Shown here piece after piece: positions 9,637 through 34,409 of a stretch of 64,000 nt of DNA. Position 1 is the first letter of the stretch; every line of letters starts with the position of its first letter. The notes below the pieces were generated by a model. That model did no database searches. It was not told the origin of the DNA and saw only the letters and a program-made list of their open reading frames with translations. Origin of the DNA: an uncultured Candidatus Saccharibacteria bacterium (GTDB taxonomy: Bacteria; Patescibacteriota; Minisyncoccia; Phycocordibacterales; UBA12088); assembly GCA_964411375.1 (NCBI GenBank), contig CAYPKR010000002.1:64894-128893 (forward strand), in the 5' to 3' direction. The position numbers were made by a program, and so were the translations under genes.

Positions 9637-10731
9637 ATGGTGCGAAAAATGGACAGGGTTTTTCTCGGAGCGGCACTTGCCTTGGTCGTTTCTGGTTTTT
9701 TTATTTTTCTTTCCGCCTCTCTTGGACTTCTCGCACGCGAAGGAGCGACATTTTCCAGTGTCGCTTTCAGCCAAATACTTCTCGGACTTCTAGGCGGTAG
9801 TGTCGCCCTCGTCGTACTTTCAAGATTTCCATACAAACACTACCGACACTATGCGCTGTATTTCGCCATTTTTGCGGCATTCATGTGTCTCTTAGTATTC
9901 GTGCCGCACCTTGGATTTAGCTATAACGGCGCCCGTAGATGGATACATCTCGGGATCTCATTCCAGCCCGCAGAACTCCTGAAAATTGGTGTGGTCATGT
10001 ATTTTGCCGCATATCTCGGTAGTCATCGCGACAAGCTCAAATACATGAAATATGGGTTCTTACCACTTCTCGCGGTTCTTGCAGTTGTTGCTGTCTTACT
10101 TCTATCTCAGCCAGATACGGGAACCTTTTTAGTTCTCGTCTTTGCAATTGTTGGAATGTATCTTGCCGCTGGAGCGCCGTGGAGAGACTTACTCCTTCTC
10201 ATGCTTCTTGCAGCAATCGGACTGGGAGTTATTGCGATGTGGCGACCGTACGTTATGGATCGATTCACCACATTTTTAAACCCAGAAAGTGACCCTTTAG
10301 GATCAGGCTATCAAATACAGCAGTCGCTAATCGCGGTTGGTTCGGGACGATTAGTTGGGCGCGGGTTTGGACAAAGTATCCAGAAATTTAACTTTTTACC
10401 GGAACCAACAGGGGACTCTATCTTTTCTGTTTTTGCTGAAGAATTTGGTCTGATTGGCGGAGCTCTCTTGATTGCACTGTACGCCATTTTCTCGCTTCGA
10501 GGGCTCCGCATAGCCGCCAGGTCACCCGACCTCTTCGGTGGACTCTTGGTTGTGGGGATTGTTATACTGATAGTGTCGCAGTCGTTCGTAAATATCGGCG
10601 CAATGGTTGGCATTTTGCCTCTGACTGGTGTGCCACTTGTGTTTGTGAGTCACGGAGGAACAGCGCTTTTCTTTGCGCTTGCTGAAGTGGGGATCATACT
10701 GAACGTCTCGACGTACTTACGCAAAGCGTAA
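9637..10731 (+). CDS. ftsW: SEDS-family peptidoglycan glycosyltransferase FtsW/RodA
   Basis: SEDS motifs. Lies between mraY and murG. Confidence 0.88.
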   Translation: MVRKMDRVFLGAALALVVSGFFIFLSASLGLLAREGATFSSVAFSQILLGLLGGSVALVVLSRFPYKHYRHYALYFAIFAAFMCLLVFVPHLGFSYNGARRWIHLGISFQPAELLKIGVVMYFAAYLGSHRDKLKYMKYGFLPLLAVLAVVAVLLLSQPDTGTFLVLVFAIVGMYLAAGAPWRDLLLLMLLAAIGLGVIAMWRPYVMDRFTTFLNPESDPLGSGYQIQQSLIAVGSGRLVGRGFGQSIQKFNFLPEPTGDSIFSVFAEEFGLIGGALLIALYAIFSLRGLRIAARSPDLFGGLLVVGIVILIVSQSFVNIGAMVGILPLTGVPLVFVSHGGTALFFALAEVGIILNVSTYLRKA

Positions 10732-28090: not shown

Positions 28091-28588
28091 ATGGAAGGAC
28101 CAGCCTTACAGCCAGAAAGAAATCCGCTCGACCTTCCGCCGCTGCACCAAGTCCATCACCTTGATTCTAGTTCTGCGGAATTCACCATGCCTTCGAGAGA
28201 AGGAGATGTTCGATTTTCATTCACACGAAAAAACGGGAAGGTTACCTATCTTGGCGCAGAGCATGGCGGAAGCGAGCAGTTACGGCCACGTACACTACAA
28301 GAAGGAGCTGCGTTTGCGAGAGCGTTATTTACGCGATACGACAATGGGCAAGATGCTGAAACTTTGGAAAACGGAGATTCGTCTGAGAATGAAATAGTTG
28401 TTGGAAAAATAATAATGGAGTGCCGCAAACGACTTGGGGATTCTGAAGAAGATTGGCACCTTAGCGATATCCGACAAATCACTACCGCACTATTTCCGGA
28501 ATTATCTCATGGTGAAGTAGAAGAGATGTGCGTTGCGGTTCTGCGAAGTGTCGAAGATACTCGCCGGTTTACGTGGGGCGAGAAATAA
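28091..28588 (+). CDS. hypothetical protein
   Basis: 165 aa ORF starting 3 nt after the yqeY-like gene. No motif recognised. Confidence 0.45.
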   Translation: MEGPALQPERNPLDLPPLHQVHHLDSSSAEFTMPSREGDVRFSFTRKNGKVTYLGAEHGGSEQLRPRTLQEGAAFARALFTRYDNGQDAETLENGDSSENEIVVGKIIMECRKRLGDSEEDWHLSDIRQITTALFPELSHGEVEEMCVAVLRSVEDTRRFTWGEK

Positions 28589-29093
28589 TAAACCGATATG
28601 GTTTTTCTATCCATTCTTCTGCATAGTTGATTCCAATACGCGGTGTGCGAAGAATATCTTTTTTTGGAATAGTGATTCCCCGGTCTTCAATCCATAATCC
28701 ACTCTGACGTTTTACGGGGAGTGTATTTTCTTTTTTTGATATTTGAAGCGCACGAGTAAGACGTCCAGGGCCTGAAATCTCCTCAACACCGCGAATTAAT
28801 ACCGCTGCCGGAAAATCTTTGGGACCAGTCACGATATTAAGCATGTGGTACATCCCATAGCAGAGATACACGTACCAATTCCCCGCTTCATCAAACATAA
28901 TCGCGTTTCGCGGTGTCTTTCCTCTGTGGGCATGAGATGCTTTGTCCTTAAATCCATCGTACGCCTCAACTTCCGTGATCATATGAGCAACTTCCCTGTT
29001 CTCAATTTTTCGTACCAAAAATTTTCCGATGAGTTCTTCGGCAACAATCAAAGTGGGGCGATTAAAAAAATCTTGCGTAAGTATTCGCTTCAT
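28569..29093 (-). CDS. mpg: DNA-3-methyladenine glycosylase (Mpg/AAG family)
   Basis: ITEVEAYDG..DKASHA..GKTPRN..MF..GNWYVYLCYGMYHMLNIV..AVLIRG. The start is taken at Met12. Confidence 0.85.
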   Translation of the reverse strand: MKRILTQDFFNRPTLIVAEELIGKFLVRKIENREVAHMITEVEAYDGFKDKASHAHRGKTPRNAIMFDEAGNWYVYLCYGMYHMLNIVTGPKDFPAAVLIRGVEEISGPGRLTRALQISKKENTLPVKRQSGLWIEDRGITIPKKDILRTPRIGINYAEEWIEKPYRFIISRPT

Positions 29094-29117
29094 AGTTGGT
29101 TGTGCCGATTGTACATC

Positions 29118-29165
29118 AAAATACACCGACGCGGATCGTTATCCTCGTCGGTGTATTTTTCTATG
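29118..29165. terminator. intrinsic terminator after the 729-aa repeat protein gene
   Basis: aaaatacaccgacg...cgtcggtgtatttt 14-bp stem with U-runs on both strands. Confidence 0.7.
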
Positions 29166-29169
29166 TCGA

Positions 29170-31359
29170 TTAGGGATTTGAAACCGCGCGAAGCATGAAT
29201 TCTATACGATCAGCAAGAATGGAGTGTCCGGTTGCGTTTGGATGGAGAAGATCGCTGGAGAGAAATGGATTTCCGAGTATTCCTTCGAGCGCGTTTGGTA
29301 CATATGCGGACTGTGTATTTCTCGCGGCGTCTTTGTAATGATCATTAAGCGAAGGATCGAGGATTCCACCACCGAGTCCAACCATCAGAACAACCGCGCC
29401 TCTTGCTTGAATGCGAGTAGCGATTGTTTGGAGATTAGCGAATGTCTGCTCACTGGTGAGCGCTGGAGTGGTGACGTTTGCACCAGCACGCACAAGCGCC
29501 GCGCGGATTTGATTGGCAAACGCATTATCGCGAATCGCAATCGCTCGATCATACATTCGACGGAGTTCGTCATTGCCACCGAGGAATACGATGACGACTT
29601 TTGGATTTTTTGAGAGCACATCTGTATCGAGCCGCGCGAGCGCTTGCGCAGTGTTATTTCCCGATACGCCAGCGTTGATGATCGGTTTGCCCAGGCGATT
29701 CGAAAGCAGGGTTACATAATTTTGAGATTGCGGCACGCCGACCCCTGATGTCAGACTGTCGCCGAACGCAATAATATTTTGTCCGCTTGATGGGTAATTT
29801 TTGACTGGCCACTGATTGCCGCCCGGCGGAGTTCCTCCGCCAGTACCTCCGGTAGTGCCACCCGTTGTCCCACCAGTAGTGGTTCCTCCGGTCGTCGTGC
29901 CGCCAGTAGTAGTACCGCCTGTCGTTCCTCCCGAACCACCGATAGAAATTGCGCCTGAAATCGCTGACCTTGTGTAGCCATTATTTTTGAAATAACGGAC
30001 ATCGTATGTGCCAGGCGCCATTCCAGTGAACGTAATTGTTCCGCTTTGCGCAGCACCCGTGTACTGCCAGGTAATAAACGAATGATCGTCCGCTCCTTGT
30101 GTATAGATTCCGATCCAATCTTGCGAGAGGTTAGCGCCGCTCGGTGCGCTCCATGTCGCGGTGACAACGTTGCCGCTTGCAGTTGCAGAAATTGTATACC
30201 CGCCCGTTCCGCCTCCGGTTGTGCCACCAGTAGTAGTTCCTCCCGTTGTGTTTCCGCCAGTTGTCGACCCTGTTGTTCCACCTGTGTTTCCTCCGGTGGT
30301 TGTGCCGCCCGTGGTGCTGCCGCCAGTTCCAGGAGTGAATGTATTGCTTGCCGTTGCAGCGCGAACGTATCCATTATCTTTGAACATCCGAGCTTCATAG
30401 GTACCAGCCGGAAGATTCATATCAGAGAAACTCACCGTCCCCGATGTACCGGAAGCAGGAATATATTTCCATTCAACAAAAGAATGGTCATCAGACATTC
30501 CCTGATTGTAGATGCCGATCCAATCTTGGCTTCCCCGTCCTGACGGCGCAGTCCACGAAACAAGTGGCGTTGCTGATTGTCCTGAATTGGTAAAACTCAA
30601 AGAATATCCTCCTGTTCCTCCACCGGAGGTACCACCTGTAGTCGTACCACCAGTTGTTGTTCCGCCGCTGGTGCCACCGCTCGAAATGGTAATTGGGTTG
30701 GAGACAGCAACACGCGTGTAGCCATTATTCTTAAAGTAACGAAGATCGTAGGTGCCAGGCGCCATTCCCGTGAATGATACGGATCCGCTTGGTACTCCAC
30801 CGGTGTATTGCCATGAAATAAATGAATGATCATCACCTTGATTGTTGGTATATATACCAACCCAATCTTGCGAAAGATTACCGCTTGTCGGAGCATTCCA
30901 CGACGCGGTCACAACTCCTCCATTCGCACTTCCAGAAACGGTATATGCCCCCCCGCCAGTGGTCGTGCCACCTGTGGTGGTACCGGTCGTTGTTCCGCCG
31001 GTTGTGCCGCCAGAAGCTCCGACCGTAAATGAGGTTGAAACTCGGATCGTGTGAAAACCGCTAGTCAGATGCCGTATTTCGTATGTCCCTGGTGGAATAT
31101 TAGAAAATGTAAGCGTGCCACTCGTGTTTGTTGGATACTGGAATGCAACGTATCCGTAATTGCTTGCATTCACCGGATAAATGCCGATCCACTCGCTATT
31201 GATCCCTGCTGCCGCCTGCCCCGAATAGGTGACAGTGACGGTAGAGCCTTGCACTGACGCAGAAAGACCCGCGGTTTGCGCGAAAAGATGGGATACAGCA
31301 AACAATGAGCCGACAAAGGTGACGCCAAGCAGGAAGACAACCGTATGGATATGTTTCAT
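29170..31359 (-). CDS. secreted protein with four tandem ~90-aa beta-domain repeats, Gly/Thr linkers and a C-terminal SGNH/GDSL hydrolase domain
   Basis: Signal peptide MKHIHTVVFLLGVTFVGSLFAVSHLFA. Each of the four repeats carries DW(I/V)GIY..SF..W(Q/K)Y..G..(T/S)F..M.PGTY..R(Y/M)FKNNGY.R. The GDSL block is IIAFGDSLTSG, with GGND and DLLHPN blocks. Confidence 0.8.
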   Translation of the reverse strand: MKHIHTVVFLLGVTFVGSLFAVSHLFAQTAGLSASVQGSTVTVTYSGQAAAGINSEWIGIYPVNASNYGYVAFQYPTNTSGTLTFSNIPPGTYEIRHLTSGFHTIRVSTSFTVGASGGTTGGTTTGTTTGGTTTGGGAYTVSGSANGGVVTASWNAPTSGNLSQDWVGIYTNNQGDDHSFISWQYTGGVPSGSVSFTGMAPGTYDLRYFKNNGYTRVAVSNPITISSGGTSGGTTTGGTTTGGTSGGGTGGYSLSFTNSGQSATPLVSWTAPSGRGSQDWIGIYNQGMSDDHSFVEWKYIPASGTSGTVSFSDMNLPAGTYEARMFKDNGYVRAATASNTFTPGTGGSTTGGTTTGGNTGGTTGSTTGGNTTGGTTTGGTTGGGTGGYTISATASGNVVTATWSAPSGANLSQDWIGIYTQGADDHSFITWQYTGAAQSGTITFTGMAPGTYDVRYFKNNGYTRSAISGAISIGGSGGTTGGTTTGGTTTGGTTTGGTTGGTTGGTGGGTPPGGNQWPVKNYPSSGQNIIAFGDSLTSGVGVPQSQNYVTLLSNRLGKPIINAGVSGNNTAQALARLDTDVLSKNPKVVIVFLGGNDELRRMYDRAIAIRDNAFANQIRAALVRAGANVTTPALTSEQTFANLQTIATRIQARGAVVLMVGLGGGILDPSLNDHYKDAARNTQSAYVPNALEGILGNPFLSSDLLHPNATGHSILADRIEFMLRAVSNP
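29950..31272 (-). repeat. intragenic tandem repeat region (four ~300-nt domain repeats plus GGT/ACC-rich linker repeats)
   Basis: The repetition is visible at the DNA level. Several spurious out-of-frame ORFs translate to the same PPVVPPVV strings. Confidence 0.7.
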
Positions 31360-31420: not shown

Positions 31421-31461
31421 GGGTCACAGATAATTTTATGCAATAAAATTATCTGTGACCC
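31421..31461. repeat. perfect 17-bp-stem palindrome sharing the GGGTCACAG core with the tRNA 3-prime flank
   Basis: gggtcacagataatttt-atgcaat-aaaattatctgtgaccc. Confidence 0.6.
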
Positions 31462-31581
31462 CGCCTAGGGAAGTTCGATCCTTACAACATCAGTTCAGGT
31501 TGTATGATCTTTTCTTCTTTCAGTCGAAAAGCTCGACAACCTTTCGATTCCCGGACGAAAAGTCCCCCGGACTTTTCTTAG

Positions 31582-31617
31582 GGTCACAGTTTTTCACTGC
31601 GTTCAAATCTGTGACCC
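31582..31617. repeat. second GGGTCACAG/CTGTGACCC inverted repeat, overlapping the 3-prime end of tRNA-Glu
   Basis: gggtcacag-N19-ctgtgaccc. The right arm contains tRNA positions 67-72 plus the trailer. Confidence 0.55.
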
Positions 31618-31683
31618 TACCGGGAATCGAACCCGGCTTTAAAGCTTGAGAAGCTTTCGTCCTAACCGATAGACGATAGGGCC
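31612..31683 (-). tRNA. tRNA-Glu (anticodon CUC)
   Basis: The reverse complement folds as a cloverleaf: acceptor GGCCCTA/TAGGGTC with one G-U pair, a D-arm with GG, anticodon stem AAAGC/GCTTT, loop TTCTCAA, and T-arm CCGGG-TTCGATT-CCCGG. 72 nt. CCA is not encoded. Confidence 0.8.
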
Positions 31684-33182: not shown

Positions 33183-34409
33183 TTGAGAAGACATCTTTGG
33201 TCCATTCGGTATCACGTGCTTGCCGCGATCGCGTTGATTGCAGCTTCGCTACTACCCAGTATCTCGATAGCGGCAACGCCGCCAGATATCATCGTTTTTC
33301 TGGTCGACGACCTCGGGAGGAGTTCATTCAACAAACTACCCGATTCGGCGACAAGAAATGTCGATGAGATCGCGAGGCAAGGTGTCAGCTTCAAGTGGGC
33401 GTATGCAGAACAAGAATGCGTGCCCGCCCGCACCGATCTCATGAGCGGCCTATATCACGCTCGCTTCGGCATACAAGGAAACGGTCCGCAACCTCCGGGT
33501 TCGATGGTCACGATTGCGGAGAAGTTGAAGCTTCTCGGCTATCACACTGCGATGGTCGGAAAATGGCATCTCGGATTTTCTGCTTCTCAACAACCGGGAG
33601 CGCAGGGCTTCGACGAAGCGTTAGTCTACATAGGCGCAACGCCCGGCTACACAATCACCACGCAGGTTAAAAATGCGGCAGGTTATGACGTTCGACTCTA
33701 TCGCCAGATCGGAAATACGTCTCCCAAAGTCGTAAACGTCACTCCGCTTTTGGGGCAATTGACTACTACCGTACTTGGCGATGAAGCCGTACGGATCGTG
33801 TCCGATAGAACCCGTACTACACCTCTGTTTCTCTACATGCCATGGACAGGAGTGCATGATCCGCTTCAGGGGACGTTGACTGCTCGATTCACAGAGGTCG
33901 ACCAACAGATCGGACGAATTATCGCGGCTGCACGACCTGGAACATTGTTTATCGTTCTCGGCGACAACGGACGCGGAAACGAAAGTCCACTTCGTGGCAA
34001 GAAATACCAAATCTATGAGGGCGGCGTCGGCACCTTTGCATTCGCTCGCTTCGATGGACACGTGGTTCCCGGCAGCATCGTCACTACGCCAGTTTCAATC
34101 GTCGACATTCCCGCCACAATCTACGCGGCGGCAACTGGTGGGGCGGTACTTCCCGGAACCGACGGATTTAATTGGTTCGGCCTTCCTGCCGACCGTGCAA
34201 TCCTCTTCGACGCGCCGAAACCGAGTCCGGGTCTCGGCGTTCGCCAAGGCGACTACAAGTACTATGCCGACCTCGATGGGAAGGCACAGCAACTCTATAA
34301 CCTTTCAATCGATCCGAACGAGACCACCAACATTGCAGGCGCCAATCCAGGCATCGTGGCAAAGATGGAAGCGCTTCTGGAGACCTACCGCAGGAATGTG
34401 CTTCCTTGA
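33183..34409 (+). CDS. sulfatase (formylglycine-dependent arylsulfatase family)
   Basis: Signal peptide. Sulfatase signature I CVPARTDLMSGLY (C-x-P-x-R) and signature II GKWHLG. Its GC content is visibly higher than that of the neighbouring genes. Confidence 0.85.
   Translation: MRRHLWSIRYHVLAAIALIAASLLPSISIAATPPDIIVFLVDDLGRSSFNKLPDSATRNVDEIARQGVSFKWAYAEQECVPARTDLMSGLYHARFGIQGNGPQPPGSMVTIAEKLKLLGYHTAMVGKWHLGFSASQQPGAQGFDEALVYIGATPGYTITTQVKNAAGYDVRLYRQIGNTSPKVVNVTPLLGQLTTTVLGDEAVRIVSDRTRTTPLFLYMPWTGVHDPLQGTLTARFTEVDQQIGRIIAAARPGTLFIVLGDNGRGNESPLRGKKYQIYEGGVGTFAFARFDGHVVPGSIVTTPVSIVDIPATIYAAATGGAVLPGTDGFNWFGLPADRAILFDAPKPSPGLGVRQGDYKYYADLDGKAQQLYNLSIDPNETTNIAGANPGIVAKMEALLETYRRNVLP

Follow-up and report, generated by a model that had tools for sequence, protein, structure and literature searches.

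Among the described enzymes closest to the one considered here is the Escherichia coli protein known as thioesterase I, protease I and lysophospholipase L1 (PDB 1IVN). The closest counterparts of its accessory domains are the SKICH domains, which serve as localisation and protein-binding modules (10.1101/264085). Bacteria belonging to the candidate phyla radiation (CPR) carry out no lipid synthesis, are enriched in lysolipids and have been proposed to take up lipids from other bacteria, and the supply of membrane lipids to ultra-small CPR/Patescibacteria cells that make no fatty acids is still unsettled (PMC7242380; PMC12455944). We analyzed a stretch of 64,000 nucleotides, referred to as the window, from an uncultured Candidatus Saccharibacteria bacterium (contig CAYPKR010000002.1, positions 64,894 to 128,893), with a focus on one gene whose predicted product joins four tandem repeats to a C-terminal SGNH/GDSL esterase. 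The protein is built from known kinds of parts: it is a secreted GDSL/SGNH hydrolase of modular make-up, and its family is recurrent, though uncharacterised. With regard to its function, we give even chances to a secreted and tethered acyl esterase, for which lipids would be a likelier substrate than peptidoglycan acetyl groups.

The open reading frame (ORF) at positions 29170-31359 (-) is intact in the ORF listing of the window and, as originally predicted, encodes a protein of 729 amino acids between an ATG start and a TAA stop codon. Glycine and threonine make up 17% and 15.5% of its residues, respectively, and it contains no cysteine. Inspection by eye together with computed hydropathy revealed an N-terminal MKHIH followed by 17 hydrophobic residues and LFA-QT, where the hyphen denotes the putative cleavage site. 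Leader ends of the AxA-Q type recur in all orthologues (VGA-QS, ALA-QA, ASA-QT) and this conservation points to cleavage by signal peptidase I. We infer that the leader is a cleaved Sec signal peptide, in line with the predicted secretion. No lipobox, LPXTG motif or C-terminal anchor was seen on inspection of the 729-residue sequence, which terminates only 23 residues past the catalytic histidine. The exact protein was not found in a collection of 15 billion proteins, and neither the repeat nor the linker type nor the esterase recurs in any other ORF of the window.

The C-terminal domain contains the GDSL, GGND and DxxH blocks on which its assignment as an esterase had been based. Lipase_GDSL_2 (PF13472) matched with 77.8 bits (cut-off 32.9, E = 1.9e-21) and PF00657 with 44.6 bits (cut-off 23.6, E = 2.5e-11). 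We located the blocks and residues that define SGNH hydrolases (PMC9487903). Block I reads IIAFGDSLTSG, includes Ser535 and aligns to Block I of TesA; Gly567 lies in NAGVSGNNT and Asn596 in FLGGNDE, while Block V (SSDLLHPN) contains Asp703 and His706. In an alignment of 16 repeat-containing esterases, the Ser, Asp and His residues are kept in every member, the Asn in 15 and the Gly in 14. As judged from these conserved residues, the domain is a catalytically competent SGNH hydrolase, in which Ser535 would act as the nucleophile, His706 and Asp703 as the acid/base pair, and Gly567 and Asn596 as the oxyanion hole. One family member deviates in these blocks: P0035, a JGI protein of 763 amino acids with five repeats, has GNS in place of GDS in Block I and GGVD in place of GGND in Block III, so that catalysis may be altered or weakened at this site.

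Comparison with solved structures placed the domain next to TesA- and lysophospholipase-type enzymes. The structure 9otv, named 'lysophospholipase L1-like esterase', was matched with E = 1.2e-20 by the single sequence and with 2e-30 by the family profile, followed by Pseudomonas aeruginosa TesA (3.6e-14 and 4e-19, respectively) and E. coli TAP (~1e-8 and 4e-17, respectively). The top NCBIfam match is likewise TesA, at a score far below the cut-off for that equivalog, and the esterase resembles the TesA branch without being TesA. An insertion of about 35 residues after Block III is present in most family members and missing from L003, P0049 and the TesA-type structures. It is predicted to be helical in a model of low confidence and could form a lid that affects substrate choice. 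Additionally, nine of the 16 aligned members (P0002, L002, P0025, P0055, P0071, P0075, P0100, P0107 and P0159) possess one cysteine just before the esterase domain and a second one near the C-terminus (CPV... and ...C(T/L)x), a pattern that suggests that the two ends of the domain are held together by an extracellular disulfide; neither the window protein nor its congener contains any cysteine.

The N-terminal part of the protein consists of four repeats of 87 to 92 amino acids, separated from each other and from the esterase by linkers of 24, 25, 44 and 36 residues that are made of Gly and Thr with some Ser and Asn. Both the repeats and the Gly/Thr linkers had been noted in the original prediction. 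Repeats 2 and 4 (R2 and R4) share 68% (67.8%) of their amino acids, R3 is about 51-52% identical to either of them, and R1 is 28-39% identical to the other repeats. For R1 and R4, the most divergent pair that was subjected to BLASTP, 34% identity was found (E = 6e-18). Because the similarity far exceeds chance even for this pair, all four repeats are regarded as homologous. The motif pattern had been described as invariant, which holds for R2 and R4 (DW(V/I)GIY, WQY, PGTY, FKNNGY) but overstates the conservation in the other two copies: R3 has WKY, AGTY and FKDNGY, and R1 has EWIGIY, FQY and PGTY, with HLTSGFH replacing FKNNGY.

The earlier analysis had also expected the repeat number to vary between strains. 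R2 and R4 have only 71-80% of their nucleotides in common, the linkers are encoded by mixed codons, and Tandem Repeats Finder detected no array in the linkers beyond 12 nt × 1.9 copies. We therefore consider the R2/R4 pair an old duplication and not a slippage-prone array. Slipped-strand switching of copy number was rejected on the same Tandem Repeats Finder result, and rapid change of this kind between strains is not indicated.

For the repeats, the original prediction had considered a CBM-like or an Ig-like module. No carbohydrate-binding module (CBM) family matched at E <= 1, neither with the whole protein nor with single repeats, while the evidence is in favor of an Ig/Fn3-type fold. Pfam SKICH (PF17751) scored 40.3 bits with the whole protein (cut-off 23.4), which results from the summing of weak single-repeat matches; individually, the repeats scored 13-21 bits and thus below the cut-off, the best one being R3 (21 bits, E = 4.8e-4). 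Single-repeat matches are spread among beta-sandwich families of the Ig-like and prealbumin-like kinds (SKICH, fn3_3, SpaA, PPC and others), none of them above its cut-off. Over 28 repeats from seven proteins, SKICH was the commonest Pfam match (12 of 28 at E < 0.01, best 1.6e-6), and among 70 family proteins SKICH was matched by 34 and fn3_PAP by 11. Using the repeat profile, we obtained a marginal match to the NDP52 and TAX1BP1 SKICH structures through the common DWIGI(Y/F) strand. hhalign gave a probability of 76.6% for the repeats against the NDP52 SKICH domain, over only 41 columns (NDP52 sequence checked against PDB 5z7a).

Structure prediction pointed in the same direction. An AlphaFold2 model of R4, based on an alignment of 21 repeats, shows eight strands (pLDDT 96.8, pTM 0.86). 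Its best Foldseek match in the PDB was the SKICH domain of TAX1BP1 (4nlh, E = 1.4e-3, TMq 0.67), followed by the Fn3-like domain at the N-terminus of purple acid phosphatase (TMq 0.74-0.76) and by ordinary Fn3 domains; a viral structure library returned generic Fn3 matches only. The repeat is thus modelled as a SKICH-like, Ig/Fn3-type beta-sandwich of eight strands. A weak match of the repeat profile (E = 0.03) to residues 771-818 of PDB 4qnl, a 'Tail fiber protein' (TDWV...WEY...G..TFTV), which we take to be the SGNH O-antigen deacetylase tailspike gp63.1 of phage G7C, is too weak to rely on; if this identity holds, it would be a second instance of such a module next to an SGNH esterase. Since the repeats match no CBM and their known relatives are protein-binding or localisation modules, the 'substrate-binding' role ascribed to them in the original prediction is an assumption.

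The repeat module is widespread. A word-indexed homologue search returned six matches only, as the low-complexity linkers dominated it, and yielded short fragments with the repeat profile; instead, this profile was run in an exhaustive HMMER search, which gave 8,373 cluster representatives when the limit was E <= 1e-3 and still 1,176 with E <= 1e-30. Proteins among the best matches typically have four to six copies, and the module is found both with and without the esterase. Its signature (DWIG.Y, W.Y, G.YE.R.F, NNG) is strongly conserved over thousands of proteins and includes an invariant Arg. Literature searches on bacterial SKICH-like repeats gave nothing relevant, and the repeats apparently form a large, undescribed prokaryotic family.

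The complete architecture, i.e. a signal peptide, three to six repeats and a C-terminal SGNH domain, was found in at least 15 other proteins. This set comprises P0001, P0002, two loci from representative genomes and twelve further representatives of 50%-identity clusters, of which P0081 has a partial esterase match only. One of the two loci lies in a Candidatus Kaiserbacteria metagenome-assembled genome (MAG; PWVU01000049, here L002) and encodes four repeats, the other one in another MAG with three repeats. The best match of the 729-residue protein among the representative genomes was likewise from Candidatus Kaiserbacteria (37% identity), and only this match led the analysis to place the organism in the CPR. 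Two family members carry the JGI names 'lysophospholipase L1-like esterase' and 'acyl-CoA thioesterase I'. Linker make-up differs within the family, from Gly/Thr in the window protein to Pro/Thr/Asp/Glu-rich in P0002 and L002. Literature searches on GDSL enzymes of Patescibacteria gave nothing relevant.

The closest comparison is provided by a congeneric genome (L001), which shares the gene order of the window (Mpg, YqeY, RmuC, L21, RecR, DnaB, CysS) and likewise has a tRNA-Glu gene upstream of the esterase gene. Whereas the neighbouring proteins are mostly 84-92% identical (Mpg 70%), the esterase proteins are 60% identical overall; their SGNH domains reach 78% and their repeats 56-68%. This faster divergence than that of the housekeeping neighbours would be consistent with a surface-exposed, fast-evolving protein. 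The orthologue (positions 271-2094 of L001; P0001) has three repeats compared to four in the window protein. R1 is orthologous to repeat r1 of P0001 (56.5% identity) and R3 to r2 (68%), while R2 has no counterpart in P0001 or in P0169. The identity of R2 to R4 (67.8%) is about that of R4 to r3 (67.4%), and either a gain of R2 in the lineage of the window protein or its loss in that of P0001 would fit. In P0169, which is 97.8% identical to the orthologue, two linkers differ by +17 and -5 residues at the same repeat number. Variable repeat number, as had been proposed, is therefore borne out between the congeners (three compared to four) and in the family (three to six), but not in this strain pair, in which two linkers differ in length: repeat number varies between species and linker length between strains.

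Taken together, these results suggest the following mechanism. After export by Sec, removal of the signal peptide would yield the mature modular enzyme. The four SKICH-like modules may attach it to the envelope of the producing cell or to that of a neighbouring or host cell; the assignment of a tethering or targeting role relies on analogy to SKICH domains, which act in localisation and protein binding. Given four domains of ~4 nm each and ~130 linker residues, modules and linkers would extend the range of the catalytic domain to tens of nanometres. The SGNH domain would then hydrolyse acyl esters outside the cell, with lysophospholipids or other fatty-acyl or short-acyl esters as likely substrates, and the released fatty acids or lysolipids might be taken up by the Patescibacteria-like cell. 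Its gene stands alone and has a terminator of its own.

The preference for lipid-type acyl esters is based on three observations, namely the position of the domain in the TesA/lysophospholipase-L1-like branch, a lipolytic cluster at the Kaiserbacteria locus and the dependence of CPR bacteria on external lipids. In the cluster, located at positions 4134-5818 of L002, two genes that overlap by 4 nt lie directly upstream of the four-repeat orthologue on the same strand; one encodes another GDSL hydrolase (PF13472, 1.8e-20), the other a patatin-like phospholipase (PF01734, 1.1e-11). The same contig also encodes an alpha/beta serine hydrolase (9936-10562, -). We consider the resulting call of a lipid-type substrate weak.

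Several points weigh against this reading. Substrate specificity of SGNH enzymes cannot be read reliably from sequence similarity, and TAP itself is promiscuous (PMC9487903). The top NCBIfam match is the TesA equivalog NF007819, which scored only 47 bits compared to a cut-off of 270 and covers residues 529-620 only. In the single-sequence AlphaFold model of the full-length protein (mean pLDDT 45.8), pLDDT is below 50 over most of residues 530-729; the model is too poor to be used for the esterase domain, be it for the three-layer alpha/beta/alpha flavodoxin-like fold expected of SGNH enzymes or for the active-site cleft. Lipolytic neighbours were seen at one locus only, and the neighbours of the other homologues are unrelated. 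In the window, the gene is near cell-wall genes (MurF-like, penicillin-binding protein (PBP) and MraW), although the tRNA gene and the hairpins intervene. Furthermore, the repeats have no known binding partner.

The alternative that fares best is the one put forward originally, in which the protein is a cell-surface O-acetylesterase, the repeats bind a glycan and the SGNH domain deacetylates peptidoglycan or polysaccharide of the host or of the cell itself. Modular carbohydrate esterases typically have this layout of a secreted SGNH domain, tandem beta-sandwich modules and Thr/Gly-rich linkers; carbohydrates are substrates of many SGNH families (PMC9487903), and the cell-wall genes are found just upstream, past the tRNA. 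Some repeats moreover match weakly to fn3_3 (domain II of polysaccharide lyase family 4) and fn3_PAP, the weak 4qnl match points the same way, and the acetyl-xylan esterase Axe2, the nearest carbohydrate esterase, is a significant match (E ~1e-6 with the single sequence, 1e-12 with the family profile). However, Axe2 is outscored by the TesA/lysophospholipase-type enzymes by 5 to 18 orders of magnitude. Ape, PatB and OatA were not matched at E <= 0.01 with the single sequence and are not among the best 60 of 77 family-profile matches at E <= 1. The failure of the repeats to match a CBM also argues against glycan binding, and none of the other homologue loci that were read for neighbours places the gene beside cell-wall genes. 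Deacetylation of a glycan is possible but, as the esterase is much closer to the TesA/lysophospholipase-L1 type, it is the less supported guess, and we regard it as doubtful.

Another possibility is that the repeats are mainly passive spacers of a soluble, broad-specificity esterase that is released from the cell, with the array setting its hydrodynamic size or protease resistance. The lack of an anchor motif would fit a released protein, and repeat number (three to six) and linker length change freely among relatives, among which linker composition is not conserved either. In contrast, the strong conservation of the repeat signature over thousands of proteins, including the invariant Arg, exceeds the needs of a pure spacer, and the closest known relatives of the repeats are binding modules, which makes this explanation improbable in our view. 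That the SGNH domain is an acyltransferase modifying the cell's own surface polymers or lipids in the manner of OatA/PatB-type or GCAT-type enzymes would agree with the catalytic blocks shared by SGNH transferases (PMC9487903) and with an insertion that could keep water from the active site, but OatA-, PatB- and AlgX-type transferases are not among the sequence matches listed, no MBOAT or AT3 gene adjoins the gene at any locus whose neighbours were read, and L003 is without the insertion while all else is kept, so that we deem it very improbable.

The secreted, tethered acyl esterase thus remains our preferred reading, and a bolder version of it can be formulated for the whole family. In this version, the family would be an extracellular lipid-harvesting device of CPR cells that are unable to make fatty acids: the array would dock on the envelope of a host or neighbour, the esterase would cleave host (lyso)phospholipids, and the fatty acids or lysolipids in which CPR membranes are enriched would be supplied in this way. 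More modestly, the repeats would represent a very large, undescribed prokaryotic branch of the SKICH fold. We regard this combination as an improbable speculation. Nevertheless, with its recurrence in genomes of this kind, in one of them beside a patatin phospholipase, a secreted and tethered TesA-like esterase is a concrete and cloneable candidate for lipid supply. The accessory repeat, as an uncharacterised SKICH-like family of more than 8,000 clusters, could merit a family definition of its own. The SKICH fold has so far been discussed only for eukaryotic cytosolic proteins, and a prokaryotic branch would be new if true. If the enzyme is a generic esterase, the finding is an ordinary one, i.e. 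a modular GDSL hydrolase.

Coordinates of all mapped features are collected in Table 1. A hairpin is located directly past the stop codon of the esterase gene, and at the same position L001 has a different 8-bp stem with a U-tract. The strong hairpin after the stop codon and its counterpart in L001 support a real terminator and a monocistronic gene, as had been predicted; a simple terminator scan had missed it, probably owing to a mismatch 4 bp from the loop. On its other side, the gene adjoins a palindrome-rich patch with a tRNA-Glu gene, again as described earlier. The two hairpins of this patch share the core GGGTCACAG; the 64 kb contain it at these four sites only, with 0.24 expected. As no T-run follows either hairpin on the gene strand, they do not qualify as canonical terminators. 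They could serve as an operator or as a processing signal, or could be an att-like duplication of the 3' end of the tRNA; the one nearer to the esterase gene may be a putative regulatory or processing element for it. In L001, the hairpin at the tRNA 3' end is 100% conserved; the gene-proximal palindrome has diverged and is only partly conserved. An Rfam scan of the window yielded tRNA only, and thus no known riboswitch or leader upstream of the gene.

The wider surroundings consist of housekeeping genes, namely DnaB, RecR, RmuC, YqeY and Mpg to one side of the gene and MurF-like, sulfatase, PBP and MraW genes to the other. We did not find a conserved operon partner: outside the congeneric L001, the homologue loci that were read for neighbours have none in common. 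Three observations concern the neighbouring ORFs. The listed GTG start of the methylpurine-DNA glycosylase (Mpg) ORF (28569-29126, -) overlaps the terminator hairpin of the esterase gene; translation probably begins 11 codons later, at an ATG (MKRILTQ...), in agreement with the 175-residue orthologue of L001. Between YqeY and Mpg lies an ORF of 165 amino acids (28091-28588, +) with no Pfam match, and the corresponding position in L001 is occupied by an unannotated gene of 96 amino acids. Between the MurF-like ligase and the PBP gene, a 408-residue sulfatase-family protein with a hydrophobic N-terminus (33183-34409, +; PF00884, 2.9e-30) is a probable exported hydrolase.

Table 1. Features of the esterase gene and its surroundings (window positions).
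Feature	Position	Strand	Details
Terminator-like hairpin, 19-nt arms, 4-nt loop, then UAUUUUGAU	29118-29159	-	-29.1 kcal/mol, z = -6.8
SGNH/GDSL hydrolase domain, aa 511-729	29173-29829	-	Pfam PF13472, PF00657
Catalytic codon His706	29242-29244	-	
Catalytic codon Asp703	29251-29253	-	
Insertion of ~35 aa after Block III, aa ~600-636	~29452-29562	-	alignments
Catalytic codon Asn596	29572-29574	-	
Catalytic codon Gly567	29659-29661	-	
Catalytic codon Ser535	29755-29757	-	
Linker 4, Gly/Thr, aa 475-510	29830-29937	-	
Repeat 4 (R4), aa 388-474	29938-30198	-	copy used for modelling
Linker 3, Gly/Thr, aa 344-387	30199-30330	-	longest of the four
Repeat 3 (R3), aa 252-343	30331-30606	-	repeat-profile E = 1.6e-29
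Linker 2, Gly/Thr, aa 227-251	30607-30681	-	
Repeat 2 (R2), aa 139-226	30682-30945	-	68% identical to R4
Linker 1, Gly/Thr, aa 115-138	30946-31017	-	
Repeat 1 (R1), aa 28-114, divergent SKICH-like beta-sandwich (predicted)	31018-31278	-	repeat-profile E = 8e-27
Putative signal peptide, aa 1-27, MKHIHTVVFLLGVTFVGSLFAVSHLFA, followed by Q	31279-31359	-	sequence inspection and computed hydropathy
Perfect palindrome, 19-nt arms, ~60 nt upstream of the esterase start	31421-31461	.	-27.1 kcal/mol, z = -6.9
Second hairpin, takes in the tRNA-Glu 3' end	31579-31619		
tRNA-Glu(CTC)	31611-31683	-	

Compared to described systems, the esterase domain is most similar to the TesA/TAP-type enzymes (1IVN, 4JGG, 9OTV and the marine SGNH esterases 7C2A and 7C23), with which it shares blocks I, II, III and V and the aligned Ser, Gly, Asn, Asp and His residues; these are its best sequence and profile matches among solved structures and are exported enzymes too. 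In contrast to these single-domain proteins of ~180-210 amino acids, the window protein adds four N-terminal beta-sandwich modules, ~130 linker residues, the ~35-residue insertion and a conserved N-terminal 'xNYP' extension. In its overall layout, it resembles modular carbohydrate esterases (Axe2-type and cellulosomal SGNH enzymes), which likewise combine a signal peptide, beta-sandwich modules, low-complexity linkers and an SGNH domain, the modules there being CBM or Fn3 domains and the linkers rich in Thr/Pro. It differs from them in that no CBM is detectable, its catalytic domain lies closer to the lipid/thioester branch, and the accessory modules of its family are N-terminal, present in three to six copies and drawn from one family. 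For the repeats, the highest TM-scores to the R4 model (0.74-0.76) were obtained with the Fn3-like domain of purple acid phosphatase (PDB 3zk4; fn3_PAP), although this is a single accessory domain of a metallophosphatase, with 14-15% identity and a Foldseek E of ~1e-2. With SKICH (PF17751: NDP52/CALCOCO2, TAX1BP1, INPP5K/SKIP), the repeats have in common the DWIGI(Y/F) strand and the next aromatic strand, whereas SKICH domains are cytosolic, single-copy and ~100-110 amino acids long, with 13-16% identity to the repeats. In INPP5K, the SKICH domain is a localisation module joined to a lipid-modifying enzyme, an arrangement to which the architecture proposed here can be likened.

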